DNA of 52,626 bases from Thermodesulfobacteriota bacterium (lineage in GTDB: Bacteria > Desulfobacterota_D > UBA1144), in the NCBI GenBank assembly GCA_036340075.1, contig JAYYZJ010000007.1, positions 1 through 52,626 of the forward strand, given 5' to 3'. The position numbers and the translations under genes are program-made. The notes beneath the pieces are model-generated. The model had not been told where the DNA came from, ran no database searches, and was given only the letters and a program-made list of their open reading frames with translations. Numbering within the stretch: the first letter of the stretch is position 1; each line of letters starts with the position of its first letter. Shown in pieces: positions 11,627 through 17,087 of the stretch.

Positions 11627-13060
11627 ATGAGCGACTCTATTTTAATAGTTGATGACGAAGAAAGTGTAAGGACCGTACTAGATCTTCATTTGAAAGATTT
11701 AGGATACGAGACTAATGGTTCAACAAAATTGTCCGAGACCTATTCTTTGTTAAAAAAAACTGAATTTGAATTAATTCTTCTAGATATTAATCTTCCCGAT
11801 GGAAACTCATTGGATTATTTAGATAAAATTAAGAAATTAGCAAATAACGCTTCAATTATTGTTATTACTGCCCAAGATACTATGAATAACGCCATAGAAG
11901 CTATGAAGAATGGTGCATATGATTATTTATCAAAACCTTTCGAGTTTGATTCTGACTTTGCCCTGACAGTAGAAAGAGCAGTTAAAAATTCAATCAATAC
12001 AAAGAAAATTCTCTCGCTGGAGAAGGATTTAAGCAATAAAGATTATCAAGAATCTGAAATTATAGGAAAATCTCCGGAAATAAAAAAGATTTTTAAAGAC
12101 ATTGGCCGAATCTCTCAGTCTGAACATACAGTATTGGTAACTGGGGAATCTGGTACAGGTAAAGAGCTTGTTGCAAAAGCAATACATTCTGCAAGCTCTA
12201 ATTCAAAAGGAAATTATGTTCAGATAAATATAACTGCGATTCCTAACGATCTACTTGAAAGTGAACTCTTTGGATACGAAAAAGGAGCATTTACTGGAGC
12301 TGATACTAAAAAGATTGGTAGGTTTGAAGAAGCGAATGGAGGCACTATTCTTCTAGATGAAATTGGTGATATGTCTTATTCGGTTCAAAGCAAACTATTG
12401 AGAGTCTTAGAGGAGAGAAAGTTTTATAGATTAGGTTCCCAGAAACCTGTCAAATTCGATTGTAGAATTATTGCATCAACAAATAAGAATTTAGAAAAAG
12501 AAGTTGAAAATAAGAACTTTAGAGAAGATTTATTTTTTAGATTAAATTCCATCAATATAGAAATTCCTCCTTTGCGAGAGAGAAAATCTGACATACCTCT
12601 CTTGATAGATTTTTTTCTTAATAAATATTCTGACTTAAAAGATTCTACCAAATCAATAGATAAGGAATTTTTAGAAGTTTTTCTAAAATATGACTGGCCA
12701 GGCAATATTAGAGAGCTTGAGAATTCAATAAAGAAAATAGTTTTAATGGTTCCCGATAACGAACTTACTGTTGATTCAATCAAGGAACATTTAGGAAAAC
12801 TCCTCGAAAAGACCGAGTCGATAAACAATAATGTCGACTACAGAAATTTAATAGAAAATTTATTTAATGACAAAAATATACCTGAGACCGGTATATATGA
12901 ATTTATAATTAATCGCATAGAAAAACCTATGATAGAATCTCTATTAATCAAAAATAATGGGGATTTAACTTTAACTTCAAAACAGCTTGATATATCTAAT
13001 GCTTCTCTAGACGAAAAGATAAAAATATTAAAGATAGATAAAACTCTTATTAGGAAATAG
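11627..13060 (+). CDS. Sigma-54-dependent response regulator, NtrC-like
   Basis: Receiver (DDE, D-phosphoacceptor, KPF), [36 protein letters not shown]; atypical C-terminal HTH. Confidence 0.92.
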
Positions 13061-13712: not shown

Positions 13713-13771
13713 TAGCCTAATCTATCATAAAAGTACTATAATTTCTTAATAAAATTAACAATTTTAATGAT

Positions 13772-13800
13772 TTGCAAATAAAATCTTAATGCTGTAAAGT
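13772..13800 (+). promoter_or_regulatory. Candidate sigma-70 promoter of the AAA-VWA locus
   Basis: TTGCAA-17 nt-TAAAGT. Confidence 0.4.
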
Positions 13801-13837: not shown

Positions 13838-14782
13838 ATGTCTAACACATTTGAGTTATTAAGAGAAGAAATGGATGAGTTGGTAGTAGGACACTCGGAC
13901 GTAAAAACAGCCTTATTGCTTGGGATAATTTCAAGAGAACATATCTACATACAAGGTCCTCCTGGTACAGCGAAGACTATGCTTTCTGAGATTATATCAA
14001 AATCAGCTGAACTTGATTTCTTTTTTTATCAAATGCATAGAGATACTAGATTGTCCGAATTGGTTGGCGACTTAGTTATTTCAAGAGAAGATACAAAAGA
14101 TGGTGAATTAATTCGACAAGACATTATAAAAGGCGGTATTCTTACTTCCGAAATATGCTTACTTGATGACATTTCTAGAGCGCCAGGTGAATCTTTAAAT
14201 GTTCTTTTAAGAATATTAAATGAGAGAAAGTATGGAGAAGAATCAATTCCTCTTCTTACCGCAATTGCAACAAGTAATCCGACAGCAGATGAATATTACA
14301 ACGAACCTTTGGATCCTGCTAATTTAGACAGATTTGTTATTCAAATCAATTCTAATGGACTCTCTTATGAGAAACAATGGGAAGATGTAAAGAAAATTGT
14401 AAGTTTGTATTCAGCAAAAAATGGCTCTTATGATTATGTAACAAAAGTAGGAAAAGATGCTCTTAATGAGAGCTACGAGCGGTTTGAAAAAGTAGTGGTT
14501 CCCGTAAATGTTCAAGAAGGTCTTGTTAATTTTGTTACCTGGCTAGTGGAAGACCAGAAGCTGAATGAACAGAATTCAGTAATTTCTGATAGGACATTTC
14601 TCGTAAAATCCATTAAAGTTATTAAGGCAAGCGCTATTCTAAATGGAAGAGATCAGGCAGATCTTTCTGATCTTAAAGCCTTAAAATTCATATTAGCCTT
14701 TCGTATACCAGAAGAACTATTTCAATTAGCAGAACAGAAACTTGAGTCAATAGAGAAGCAAAAAAAAAAGACCAAGAAGTAG
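13838..14782 (+). CDS. MoxR/RavA-type AAA+ ATPase (0-frame product)
   Basis: Walker A GPPGTAKT, Walker B variant CLLDD, LNER, sensor-1 ATSN, LDRF Arg finger, ISDR sensor-2. Confidence 0.88.
   Translation: MSNTFELLREEMDELVVGHSDVKTALLLGIISREHIYIQGPPGTAKTMLSEIISKSAELDFFFYQMHRDTRLSELVGDLVISREDTKDGELIRQDIIKGGILTSEICLLDDISRAPGESLNVLLRILNERKYGEESIPLLTAIATSNPTADEYYNEPLDPANLDRFVIQINSNGLSYEKQWEDVKKIVSLYSAKNGSYDYVTKVGKDALNESYERFEKVVVPVNVQEGLVNFVTWLVEDQKLNEQNSVISDRTFLVKSIKVIKASAILNGRDQADLSDLKALKFILAFRIPEELFQLAEQKLESIEKQKKKTKK
14760..14770 (+). other. A10G slippery sequence (contains A_AAA_AAG), candidate -1 frameshift / transcriptional slippage site
   Basis: 0-frame CAA AAA AAA AAG ACC AAG AAG TAG; the -1 frame is open from 14746 through 15957. 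Confidence 0.7.
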
Positions 14783-15957
14783 AAAATAAGAAAGATCGGC
14801 CTGGTCAAGATTACGAAAAAGATTCTGAAAATAAGGAATTTGGCTCAAACCAAGATAAGGATTCTGATATAACAGAAGAACAAATTAATGAAGCTTCGGA
14901 TGCTTTCATGGAAGCTCTCGAGGAATTAGAATCTAATTTAACTAGTCAAGATAATTCTAAACCTATGGAATCCGAAGACAAAATACCTACAAATCCTAGC
15001 AATCAGAGTGAAGATGATGGTGAAGGTGATATTGAGAATGCTCCACTCTCAGAGAAGATATATGCTACAAAATCTAAAAGATCTGGAGAGTCTGATACCG
15101 CCAGAACTGGTACATTAGATAATTCAGAAGTTGCTCAAAATGTACAAATAGTCATGAAATGCTTGGAAGGTAACATACAAAGAAGTTTAGCTAAGAAAGG
15201 AACCCATCCTGGGGGCCTACCTAGAAGGTATAAAAGAATGAACTCTTTCTATGAAATAGAAGATGTTGATCCAATGGATGCAACAATTTGGACAAAAAAT
15301 CTTTCTCCTCTACTTCCTCGAGTTCACCAGAGGGAAAGGGAAATGATGGGAGGAGAAATAGCCATTCTAAGAGATATAAGCACCTCTATGATGGGAGTTT
15401 ATAGCGAATGGTCATCTTCCGTAGTCAAGGCTGTAGTAGAACTTGCTAGAACCAAAAGGATGAGGGTTGGGTATATAGAATTTAATCATAAATCATTTAA
15501 GACAATTGTGGAGGAGAAATTTTTCACAAAAGAATATGAAACTATATTGCAATCTGCAAATAAAACAGAGTGCTCTGGAAATACAAACTATGAAGAAGCT
15601 CTTAAAGATGCAATATCGGATTTTAAAGGTAGGGGTTTGAGAAACAAGCACATACTATTTATTACAGATGGTATTCCTACCTCAGGTGATACCGAAGTAG
15701 TCAGAGAAAGAGAAAGAGCAAAGAAACTTGGAATATGTATACATTCTATATTTATTGGTTCAAAGAATTTTCCTGCAATTCTTAATACAATTTCCAAAGA
15801 AACTTGGGGTTCTCAATTCGTTGCTTATGAAAACCAACATGGGAAAATAGTTATAGAAAGAAAAGAATCTAGTATAAATTTTCATGTTCCTAAAGGAATA
15901 GTTCGTGAAGGGGCTACGAATTATAATAAGAATCTAGATCCTCTCAACTTCATCTAA
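14770..15957 (+). CDS. Acidic linker plus VWA domain; probably the C-terminal part of a frameshifted AAA-VWA fusion (first in-frame ATG at 14908)
   Basis: MIDAS DISTS, GNTNY, LFITDG. Upstream in-frame extension DQEVENKKDRPGQDYEKDSENKEFGSNQDKDSDITEEQINEASDAF has no stop. Confidence 0.8.
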   Translation, partial: DQEVENKKDRPGQDYEKDSENKEFGSNQDKDSDITEEQINEASDAFMEALEELESNLTSQDNSKPMESEDKIPTNPSNQSEDDGEGDIENAPLSEKIYATKSKRSGESDTARTGTLDNSEVAQNVQIVMKCLEGNIQRSLAKKGTHPGGLPRRYKRMNSFYEIEDVDPMDATIWTKNLSPLLPRVHQREREMMGGEIAILRDISTSMMGVYSEWSSSVVKAVVELARTKRMRVGYIEFNHKSFKTIVEEKFFTKEYETILQSANKTECSGNTNYEEALKDAISDFKGRGLRNKHILFITDGIPTSGDTEVVRERERAKKLGICIHSIFIGSKNFPAILNTISKETWGSQFVAYENQHGKIVIERKESSINFHVPKGIVREGATNYNKNLDPLNFI

Positions 15958-17087
15958 TCCTTAATTGTAACCATATTGTCTCTATTCATTATTTCATCAG
16001 AATATTTATAACCTAAAACTTTTTCTATATCTTTTGATTTCATACCCTTGATTTGATTAATCTCTTCAGAATCATAAGAAATGAGACCTTTTGCAATCTC
16101 TTTCATTGTTTTAGAATTAACACATATAACTTGTGCTCCCTTGAGAAACTTACCTTCTACTTTTAATACACCTGAAGGAAGTAAGCTTTTTCCTTTTTGA
16201 ATTATTGCATCTGAAGCACCCTGGTCTATTATTAGTCTGCCCGAAGATTTAGGTCCTATACCTATCCATTTTTTTCTATTTTTAATCTTCTTAGAACTAG
16301 GCATTATCACTGTTCCAACATCTTCATAATTAAATATTCTCCGTAATTCATCCTTAGCTGTTCCATTTGCGATAATTGTTGGTATTCCGAATTTTGATAC
16401 TTCTAAAGAAGCCTCTATCTTGGACTTCATGCCACCAAAGGATATCTCTTCAGACGTATCACTTATTACAGTAGAATCGAATTTATCTTCTTTAATTACT
16501 TGGATAAGTCTTGCTTGTTTATTTTTTTTTGGATTAGAGCTATAAAGTCCATTTGTATCAGTAAGCAAAATTAAACAGTCTGCGTCCATCATTGATGCAA
16601 CTTTAGATGCAAGAATATCATTATCACCAAACATTATTTCATCTACAGATACAGTATCATTTTCATTTATAACAGGAACTATTTTCATTTTTATCAATTC
16701 CAAAATAGTGGCACGTGTATTTAAGAACCTTTTTCTATTAGAAAAAATATCGTTTGTTAGCAATAATTGGGATACGTCAACTTTTTCCTTTTCAAATGCT
16801 TTAATGTAATAACTCATTAGCTTTAATTGGCCTAATGATGCTATGGCTTGTTTTTTTACTATATTGATTTTTTTTATATTTAAAGAAAAAAGCTCGTTGC
16901 CTGCGAGAATAGCACCAGAAGAAACAATAAGACAATCAATATTTTTTGAACGAAGATACTTTACAGATGAAGCAAGGAATTTAATTCTGGAATAACTTAT
17001 TCTTCCAGACTTGTCAGCTAGAGCTTTAGATCCTATTTTAATTACAACTCTTTTTGCTTTTTTTAGTATATTCTTTATATCTTCCAT
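15954..17087 (-). CDS. proB: Glutamate 5-kinase with PUA domain
   Basis: VIKIGS, VSSGA, PVINENDTV, FGDND, GGMKSK, SLLPSG. Confidence 0.96.
   Translation of the reverse strand: MEDIKNILKKAKRVVIKIGSKALADKSGRISYSRIKFLASSVKYLRSKNIDCLIVSSGAILAGNELFSLNIKKINIVKKQAIASLGQLKLMSYYIKAFEKEKVDVSQLLLTNDIFSNRKRFLNTRATILELIKMKIVPVINENDTVSVDEIMFGDNDILASKVASMMDADCLILLTDTNGLYSSNPKKNKQARLIQVIKEDKFDSTVISDTSEEISFGGMKSKIEASLEVSKFGIPTIIANGTAKDELRRIFNYEDVGTVIMPSSKKIKNRKKWIGIGPKSSGRLIIDQGASDAIIQKGKSLLPSGVLKVEGKFLKGAQVICVNSKTMKEIAKGLISYDSEEINQIKGMKSKDIEKVLGYKYSDEIMNRDNMVTIKD

Follow-up and report, generated by a model that had tools for sequence, protein, structure and literature searches.

A conserved poly-A run at the junction of a MoxR-type ATPase and a VWA domain points to a recoded gene with two predicted isoforms in Dadabacteria

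In a stretch of 52,626 nucleotides from a Thermodesulfobacteriota bacterium (contig JAYYZJ010000007.1 of assembly GCA_036340075.1; the whole of this stretch is hereafter called the window), a reading frame for a MoxR-type AAA+ ATPase is followed on the forward strand, between positions 13838 and 15957, by a frame that carries a VWA domain. The present analysis indicates that this locus is very probably a single recoded gene making two isoforms. Standard decoding would yield an ATPase of 314 amino acids (aa) that consists of the MoxR AAA+ module only, and a net −1 change of frame inside a run of A's would yield a product of 706 aa, in which the AAA+ module and a KKK stretch are continued by an acidic, disordered, helix-containing linker and by a VWA domain bearing a metal ion-dependent adhesion site (MIDAS). 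A preliminary description, made from the sequence of this stretch, had already proposed a recoding site here; its presence at the locus stands, but it is not special to this locus, since it is family-wide and occurs in all three genomic phase states.

The zero-frame open reading frame (ORF), which gives the short product under standard decoding, extends from 13838 to 14782 on the + strand and ends with the codons CAA (14759) AAA AAA AAG (14768-14770) ACC AAG AAG TAG (14780-14782). The C-terminus of the ATPase reads ...EKQKKKTKK, the lysine run K309-K311 being followed by a TKK tail and the stop. The A10 run that we regard as the slippery recoding site occupies 14760-14769 (+ strand), and the zero-frame ORF closes 10 nt 3′ of it. 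In the −1 frame, the final stop ahead of the run is a TGA at 14743-14745, and this frame is then open from 14746 to a TAA at 15955-15957, over 403 codons. Because of this TGA and of the zero-frame stop at 14780, a shift into the VWA frame must fall within 14746-14780. The heptamer A_AAA_AAG at 14764-14770, which uses G14770, is in the phase of the zero frame. The predicted long product comprises M1-K311 and then the residues read from the aspartate codon at 14770 (311 + 395 = 706 aa), with a junction that joins ...IEKQKKK to DQEVENK..., i.e. ...IEKQKKKDQEVENK. Past this junction lie, all on the + strand, an acidic and mostly disordered linker (14770-15354, from the homologue alignment, substitution ratios and a structural model described below), the VWA domain with an intact MIDAS (15355-15810, from Pfam; residues 204-355 of the shifted frame, protein P0001) and a C-terminal tail that ends with the TAA (15811-15957). 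The preliminary description had placed the end of the ATPase ORF, the A10 run, the TGA at 14743, the open −1 frame and an ATG at 14908 exactly where we find them, and its acidic linker (DQEVENKKDRPGQDYEKDSEN...), its products of 314 and ~706 aa and their junction (...KKKDQEVENK) were likewise recovered.

Related loci were retrieved by a genome scan with an alignment of ATPase homologues, keeping one genome per species. Among the 80 loci obtained, 79 could be analyzed (L016 was left out because it runs off its contig). They belong to metagenome-assembled genomes (MAGs) of Dadabacteria or Thermodesulfobacteriota, many of which are complete chromosomes; in the NCBI taxonomy, Dadabacteria is a class within Thermodesulfobacteriota. 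It should be emphasized that these loci share ancestry, and that numbers of loci (for example the 62 discussed below) are not numbers of independent events. All 79 loci carry an A-run at the homologous place, i.e. at the junction between the AAA+ module and the linker, with lengths of A9 (n = 9), A10 (n = 53), A11 (n = 16) and A12 (n = 1). Both the frame break and the poly-A, whose conservation had been proposed as a check, are thus found at the same place in related genomes. The genomic phase of the downstream frame differs: 66 loci require a −1 change like the window, two (L008 and L070) require a +1 change, and 11 are in frame. Each locus has one long frame after the run (386-414 codons; two loci are cut by contig ends), while the other two frames meet a stop within 0-25 codons in every locus. 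In the 66 loci of the −1 type, this long frame opens at or inside the A-run, and the zero-frame stop of the out-of-frame relatives lies three to eight codons 3′ of the run (16 in L070). Furthermore, in most out-of-frame loci from outside the marine clade to which the window belongs, the final stop of the −1 frame is a TAA that shares the first two A's of the run, and the change of frame therefore has to occur inside the run itself.

The 11 in-frame loci are single ORFs of about 700-715 aa and retain the run, for instance as TCT AAA AAA AAA CTC. Even L047, a locus of 64% G+C, reads GAC AAA AAA AAA ACT at the junction, its ratio of AAA to AAG being 4:16 elsewhere. The preliminary description had reasoned that continuous fusions devoid of poly-A in relatives would argue for an error in the run; continuous fusions do exist (11 of the 79 loci), yet they keep it. 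Among the 62 non-marine loci, AAA accounts for 51% of the lysine codons of the same ORF, and all 62 nevertheless have three AAA codons at the junction, compared to about 10 of 62 expected from their own lysine codon usage. This excess indicates selection on the nucleotides, beyond selection for lysine alone. At the protein level, the best 120 homologues of the ATPase have 61-93% identity to it and are almost all 307-327 aa long, and 119 of them end with a lysine run and a short variable tail, the exception (P0117, 425 aa) continuing past the junction. This combination of a lysine run and a short variable tail is the mark of a conserved frame break.

Beginning at the run, the shifted frame behaves as coding sequence. 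Its peptide aligns position by position with the linker found in in-frame homologues, and all share a common pattern: KKK-x-x-D..., an acidic stretch with SEF(D/E), and a helix of strong conservation, SEARKTFFQALKELKENI, whose version in the window is EASDAFMEALEELESNL (about 14890-14940); a conserved HPGGLPRRYKRM motif also lies within the linker. The pairwise ratios of non-synonymous to synonymous substitutions (dN/dS) are 0.04-0.17 for the first 130 codons past the run and 0.006-0.10 for the VWA part, with dS being saturated in several pairs; by these ratios, the region encoding the linker and the VWA domain is under purifying selection. In the 46 codons that separate the run from the first ATG of the VWA frame in the window (14908-14910), variable columns number 30, 20 and 41 of 46 at codon positions 1, 2 and 3, respectively. 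This stretch, whose translation in the window contains DQEVENK and DSDITEEQINEASDAFMEALEELESNLTSQDNSK, is open in all 18 marine sequences, and in L013 a single codon is cleanly deleted from it. In addition, a metagenomic protein of 695 aa (P0424, from the cluster of L036) reads ...QDKKKKPDDQL..., which is the trans-frame junction predicted for its clade.

These data bear directly on the possibility that the locus consists of two independent genes, in which case the VWA protein would start at the ATG at 14908, or through reinitiation once the TAG at 14780 has been passed, and the open frame ahead of it would be meaningless. Public annotation does separate a "MoxR-like ATPase" from a "hypothetical protein / vWA domain", and MoxR ATPases are commonly paired with a separate VWA gene, as for NorQ/NorD (PMC9976466; PMC13036017). 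However, the methionine at 14908 is the M of the conserved linker helix that is common to the in-frame homologues; Leu or Thr takes its place in eight of the 17 other marine-clade loci, and Phe does so in the majority of loci belonging to other clades. The distance from the run to the first ATG, GTG or TTG ranges from 4 to 128 codons in 69 out-of-frame sequences. The only element resembling a ribosome binding site upstream of 14908 is a GGA, and neither a promoter-like nor a terminator-like site was found between the two ORFs on the + strand. The ATG at 14908 is the one that a gene-calling program would choose, but it is not conserved as a start. Given also the uninterrupted frame, third-position excess and in-frame indel seen ahead of it, and the existence of continuous forms (the 11 in-frame loci and 330 longer homologues of 551-2000 aa with E-values of 1e-3 or better), two independent genes appear very improbable. 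The pattern that the preliminary description had associated with such genes, namely stops in the linker frame together with a conserved start at 14908, is not what relatives display.

The domain content of both parts was established with Pfam and structural comparisons. The ATPase matches bpMoxR (74.3 bits, cut-off 27), AAA_5 (69.2, cut-off 22), AAA_3 (44.6, cut-off 27) and AAA_lid_8 (37.7, cut-off 22.8), and its Walker A motif is GPPGTAKT. In a sequence search of the PDB, it retrieves 2r44 (MoxR) with an E-value of 1.3e-20 and RavA with 7e-15. The shifted frame matches VWA (38 bits, cut-off 23.8) and VWA_3 (37, cut-off 27), with VWA_CoxE and VWA_2 also above their cut-offs; the PDB sequence search with the linker-VWA frame gave a single weak and meaningless match, to a heme oxygenase (E = 0.007). 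The MIDAS motif has the form DxSxS...T...D, and in the window it is made of DISTS (15373-15387), NTNY and TDG, the residues D, S, S, T and D being invariant in 41 in-frame homologues. A structural model was obtained with AlphaFold2 for a natural in-frame homologue of 703 aa (L024), from a 41-row alignment (mean predicted local distance difference test score of 69, predicted template modelling score, pTM, of 0.46). Residues 1-319 form a confidently predicted AAA+ module, and the KKK lies in its final helix (300-319); next come an acidic linker, disordered except for two helices (349-375 and 438-455), and a VWA fold at about 505-680. In this whole-chain model, with its pTM of 0.46 and its disordered linker, the placement of the VWA domain relative to the AAA+ module is unreliable. 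The best fold match of the AAA+ part is again 2r44 (TM-score of 0.73 on the target), followed by RavA and then by MCMs. A separate observation concerns the Walker B position of the window ATPase (14164-14172, L109-D110-D111), which reads LLDD, the usual motif being hhhhDE; neither Asp varies in the 23-row or the 41-row alignment.

Several candidate identities were examined and rejected. RavA is a protein of about 498 aa with a LARA domain, whereas the ATPase part here has 314 aa and scores 68.9 bits on NCBIfam NF010054, compared to a cut-off of 681. The preliminary description had called the ATPase RavA/ViaA-like: its membership of the MoxR family holds, but it is not a RavA orthologue. A chelatase subunit was rejected as well, the ATPase scoring 19.8 bits on PF01078 (cut-off 20.3), in the Walker A region only, and TIGR02442 giving 28.4 and 15.7 bits compared to 779; the in-frame homologue L024 reaches 20.4 bits on PF01078 over residues 18-55 only. 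As for a defence system, the PADLOC matches of the ATPase are weak, IetA-like and limited to the Walker region, and the VWA part has none.

Some observations weigh against the reading of the locus as one gene recoded at its A-run, mainly by slippage of RNA polymerase. The first kind concerns the protein: KKK is conserved in 110 of the 118 in-frame fused homologues that could be parsed (120 listed), and part of the conservation of the run could thus be exerted at the protein level, on a KKK located in the last helix of the AAA+ lid. Another kind concerns the length of the run, which varies by a single A among close relatives: L023 (A12, in frame) compared to L025 (A11), L008 (A9) inside an A10 clade, L070 (A10) inside an A11 clade, proteins of 316 aa of the A9 type (P0410 and P0412) in the marine clade, and the in-frame P0424 in a −1 clade. 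Taken at face value, these variants indicate that run length is labile and that some slippage at the DNA level happens or is mis-assembled; some of them may be assembly noise, the contig of L023 having a coverage of 5. Finally, A_AAA_AAG is in phase in two of the three main out-of-frame clades, which makes ribosomal frameshifting a possible contributor.

Run-length variants among assemblies and close relatives are what would be expected from DNA-level phase variation, in which replication slippage would toggle the fusion within a population, the assembled A10 of the window being the OFF state. To follow the phase states, a tree of the AAA+ domain (80 rows) was built by a quick maximum-likelihood search that leaves many forks unsupported. 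In this tree, 17 rows of the marine clade are at −1 and one is at +1, another clade has 33 of 33 rows at −1, and one clade has eight of nine rows in frame; the minimum number of changes of phase state is seven over the 80 rows, compared to a mean of 16.6 after shuffling. Frequent switching would scatter the states among close relatives, whereas the −1 state is held over long divergence. Moreover, 11 clusters of the marine clade bring together 465 member sequences of the short form, whereas no fused form (at least 551 aa) came up, in a search for longer proteins, with more than 68% identity to the window ATPase. The dN/dS of the VWA frame is 0.1 or less in out-of-frame clades, and in-frame lineages retain the run even at high G+C. 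Phase variation at the DNA level is thus a quite improbable explanation, and the dominant picture is one of long-term fixation of an out-of-frame genome whose downstream frame is under selection. More improbable still, to the point of being barely credible, is an error of sequencing in the homopolymer or the recent decay of an in-frame fusion into a pseudogene. Homopolymers are indeed error-prone, but the same out-of-frame layout is present in 66 of the 79 species genomes, with many complete-chromosome assemblies among them, the downstream frame is under purifying selection, and no other homopolymer breaks a frame across the 52.6 kb of the window. The exact protein of 314 aa is also found on 42 contigs from several independent sources (the VWA call of 349 aa that starts at the ATG is found on seven).

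If the locus is one recoded gene, the slip could occur during transcription or during translation, and the same protein would be made by either route. RNA polymerase would insert one extra A in part of the transcripts and thereby open the long frame; a polymerase that adds or drops A's would always give both long-frame and short-frame mRNAs. A −1 slip of the ribosome on A_AAA_AAG is a possible contributor or alternative. Within recoding, slippage of RNA polymerase is moderately favoured, because at least nine A's are conserved regardless of their phase and of the base that follows, because no stimulator is apparent, and because the +1 and in-frame genomes keep the run. The phase of the run varies across the family (0, 1 or 2), and the next base, among the 79 loci, is G in 65, C in 11 and T in three. 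The largest clade (33 loci) reads AAA AAA AAA A and then G, T or C, and thus lacks an in-phase AAG, and A9 runs followed by C or G are also present. A_AAA_AAG is in phase in 18 loci with a run of phase 1 followed by G and in 15 loci with an A11 of phase 0 followed by G. Between positions −36 and +45 relative to the run, only the G at +1 (82% of 80 sequences) and the C at +3 are strongly conserved. No consensus RNA structure 3′ of the run was found in four clades with RNAalifold, the folding of the 100 nt after the run of the window is no better than that of shuffled sequences (z = +0.30), a Rfam scan for an RNA family at the site gave no match, and no conserved Shine-Dalgarno-like element was seen 5′ of the run. 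The preliminary description had noticed no strong downstream hairpin, and the clade structures, shuffled folds and Rfam scan agree with it; its resulting preference for transcriptional slippage seems reasonable.

These same features decide how much weight can be given to purely translational recoding, in which ribosomes would slip −1 on A_AAA_AAG (14764-14770) with negligible slippage of RNA polymerase. The heptamer is correctly phased in the window, in the marine clade (18 loci) and in the A11 clade (15 loci), a G mostly follows the run, and frameshifted chlD is described as a case of ribosomal frameshifting in the account of PMC9227772. The absence of an in-phase AAG from the 33-locus clade, the A9 runs followed by C or G elsewhere, and the absence of a conserved 3′ hairpin or 5′ Shine-Dalgarno-like element are all at odds with it. 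Retention of the run by +1 and in-frame loci fits a polymerase that slips in both directions better than a ribosome that slips one way, and at least nine A's suffice for transcriptional realignment according to PMC3711429. An exclusively ribosomal mechanism is, on balance, rather unlikely, though far from negligible. Precedents exist for both routes: in E. coli reporters, poly-A sites of Mg-chelatase genes gave 63%, 40% and 10% of −1 recoding for 11, 9 and 7 A's, respectively, and the dnaX genes of Thermus and E. coli are given as examples of transcriptional realignment on A9 and of ribosomal frameshifting on A_AAA_AAG, respectively (PMC3711429). Furthermore, 12-50% of transcripts are reported to be corrected at long poly(A) runs in insect endosymbionts, and a single AAA_AAA_AAA is reported in the coding sequence of E. 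coli (PMC5009743).

As to what the two products would do, the short form may fill most positions of an AAA+ hexamer and leave one or a few to long subunits that supply a tethered VWA adaptor, the ratio of long to short form being set by the rate of slippage. Such a ring, made mostly of short subunits with a few long ones bearing the VWA domain, is what we infer by analogy with NorQ6:NorD1 and ChlI/ChlD. A broader proposal, which we put forward only tentatively and to which we would give slightly less than even chances, is that the A-run acts as a family-wide heritable dial of stoichiometry: all lineages would make both isoforms by polymerase slippage, and the site would be active beyond Dadabacteria. 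Single-A changes of the genome between the in-frame, −1 and +1 states (about seven switches on the tree) would then reset which isoform is the major one while losing neither. If this were true, the MoxR machine would require rings of mixed composition in which the tethered VWA arm is sub-stoichiometric.

The extension outside Dadabacteria is suggested by more distant homologues. In-frame homologues with KKK at the junction include proteins of the Tectomicrobia/Entotheonella type (52-57% identity) that read LLRKKKVAPEE.... A search seeded with P0242, a short ATPase with 51% identity, returned many proteins of 310-325 aa whose last residues are KKK or KKN or closely follow it; among the Tectomicrobia/Entotheonella-like and other lineages concerned (P0437-P0477), examples of these short forms end in ...LLRKKKNNA, ...LVEKKN or ...LDEKKK. 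The presence of such short forms beside in-frame forms in these lineages is the reason for considering that they use the same site. At 51% identity or below, most representatives are in-frame fusions that lack a K-run. Taken together, these sequences suggest that the slippery junction has spread beyond Dadabacteria, and it is probably older than this class. Eight of the loci (L001, L003, L047, L052, L059, L079, L014 and L039) carry the Dadabacteria-type gene, with 61-93% identity, in records labelled Spirochaetales/Spirochaetia, Hydrogenedens or Ignavibacteriales; the taxonomy of these MAGs is probably mislabelled.

All homopolymers of the window were also surveyed (A/T runs of at least 7 and G/C runs of at least 6), and A10 is the only one that joins the end of one long frame to the start of another. 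It is also the sole A/T run of at least 10 in the 52.6 kb, which bears out the impression of the preliminary description that it was the longest coding-strand homopolymer, and apart from it no A/T run exceeds 9; dinucleotide-preserving shuffles, in comparison, expect 8.3 ± 4.5 runs of at least 10. Long A-runs are thus depleted in the window, which suggests selection against slippery homopolymers in this genome of 31.7% G+C. At such a G+C content, the A10 taken alone is not beyond chance, and its significance comes from the conservation of the run in relatives. The second-longest homopolymer is a T9 at 16522-16530, which corresponds, on the strand that codes for proB, to an in-frame A9, without any frame break; a few marine relatives have a T9 in the flank on the proB side, whose positional match to the T9 of the window is not demonstrable. 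An A8 at 11752-11759 lies in the NtrC-type response-regulator gene of the window, and five marine relatives have an A9 at a roughly corresponding place (L007:904, L008:910, L010:906, L013:939 and L015:883).

The neighbours of the locus in the window are rnc, the gene of the NtrC-type regulator, proB, a thioesterase gene and gyrA. Only proB, which is convergent, is a conserved neighbour (69 of the 80 loci), the upstream genes differing between clades; these neighbours are housekeeping genes, and the context holds no clue to the target of the machine. No beta-propeller gene is adjacent, the flanks being rnc and proB on the opposite strand and, in relatives, YceG, rhomboid and outer-membrane protein genes. 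Likewise, no nor, cbb or ldc gene is adjacent, and no CobN/ChlH gene is present among the neighbours in the window or in the 3-kb flanks of L024 and L036. A sigma-70-like promoter match lies 5′ of the ATPase start (13755-13784, + strand; 10 of 12 consensus positions), which is weak consensus evidence, and the number of such sites around it is not above that in shuffled sequences. The stop of the VWA frame and that of the convergent proB overlap by 4 nt (15954-15957), and the gene of the NtrC-type regulator and rnc overlap by 11 nt (13050-13060). Such terminal overlaps of convergent genes are consistent with a streamlined genome.

To our knowledge, conserved recoding in chromosomal, non-mobile bacterial genes is rare. 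The gene reported here would be such a case: it looks like a core gene, in Dadabacteria, an uncultured and widespread class of marine and terrestrial bacteria. It would also be a second, independent AAA+/VWA family, beside chlD, in which both chains are made from one gene, which would suggest that such machines generally need a fixed ratio of motor to adaptor subunits, or a coupling of their assembly. A practical consequence concerns annotation, since the gene is split, in at least 68 of the 79 related species genomes and in many metagenome calls, between a "MoxR ATPase" and a "hypothetical/vWA protein" that is truncated and has an arbitrarily chosen start. The retention of the run in in-frame, −1 and +1 genomes provides a natural experiment on the evolution of isoform ratios set by slippage, and the locus is a clean test case for distinguishing slippage of RNA polymerase from that of the ribosome.

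No description of recoding in MoxR-VWA genes was found in the literature searched, and the main text of Antonov et al. 2013, together with one of its supplement files, mentions no MoxR or ATPase clusters and no von Willebrand domain. The closest known case is that of frameshifted chlD, for which we relied on Antonov et al. 2013 (PMC3711429), Kuznetsov et al. 2022 (PMC9227772) and Atkins et al. 2016 (PMC5009743). As described in these sources, one chlD gene gives a short AAA+-only product and, after a −1 change, a long AAA+-linker-VWA product; the poly-A site (7-11 A's) is located right behind the AAA+ module; the gene is annotated as two adjacent genes and has in-frame fusions in other species; and the purpose proposed for it is the production of two subunits of one AAA+ machine. 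All of these traits have an observed or predicted counterpart at the present locus. The two cases differ by the AAA+ family, which is of the MoxR type here, the tests for chelatase families having failed, by the downstream RNA structure, which is described for chlD signals (PMC9227772) and was not found here, and by the retention of the run in in-frame lineages here. An association with CobN/ChlH is not universal even for frameshifted chlD, according to PMC9227772.

The locus also recalls the MoxR-vWA-beta-propeller systems of the Pfam description of PF20030 (bpMoxR), this family being the best Pfam match of the ATPase and a VWA partner following it, but these ternary systems include a third gene, encoding a beta-propeller protein, that is missing here. 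With dnaX, whose tau and gamma products are long and short AAA+ isoforms sharing an N-terminal ATPase, it shares an A-run as slippery element, a zero frame that codes for the long or the short form depending on the lineage, the other form being made by slippage, and alternative frames that stop within a few codons (PMC3711429). The functions are unrelated, dnaX encoding a clamp loader component and the present gene a MoxR/VWA protein. In addition, E. coli dnaX uses strong upstream and downstream stimulators, which were not seen at the MoxR-VWA site. Other MoxR AAA+/VWA partner pairs, such as CbbQ/CbbO and RavA/ViaA, are encoded by separate genes, each with a start of its own, as are NorQ and NorD, whereas the VWA domain of the present locus would be covalently joined to the ATPase in a recoding-dependent manner. 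Like the predicted products, NorQ and NorD pair a hexameric ATPase of the MoxR class with a VWA protein that bears a MIDAS and a disordered linker (PMC9976466; PMC13036017). Their reported stoichiometry, NorQ6:NorD1 (PMC9976466), offers a reason why a cell might make much of the ATPase and little of the chain that bears the VWA domain.

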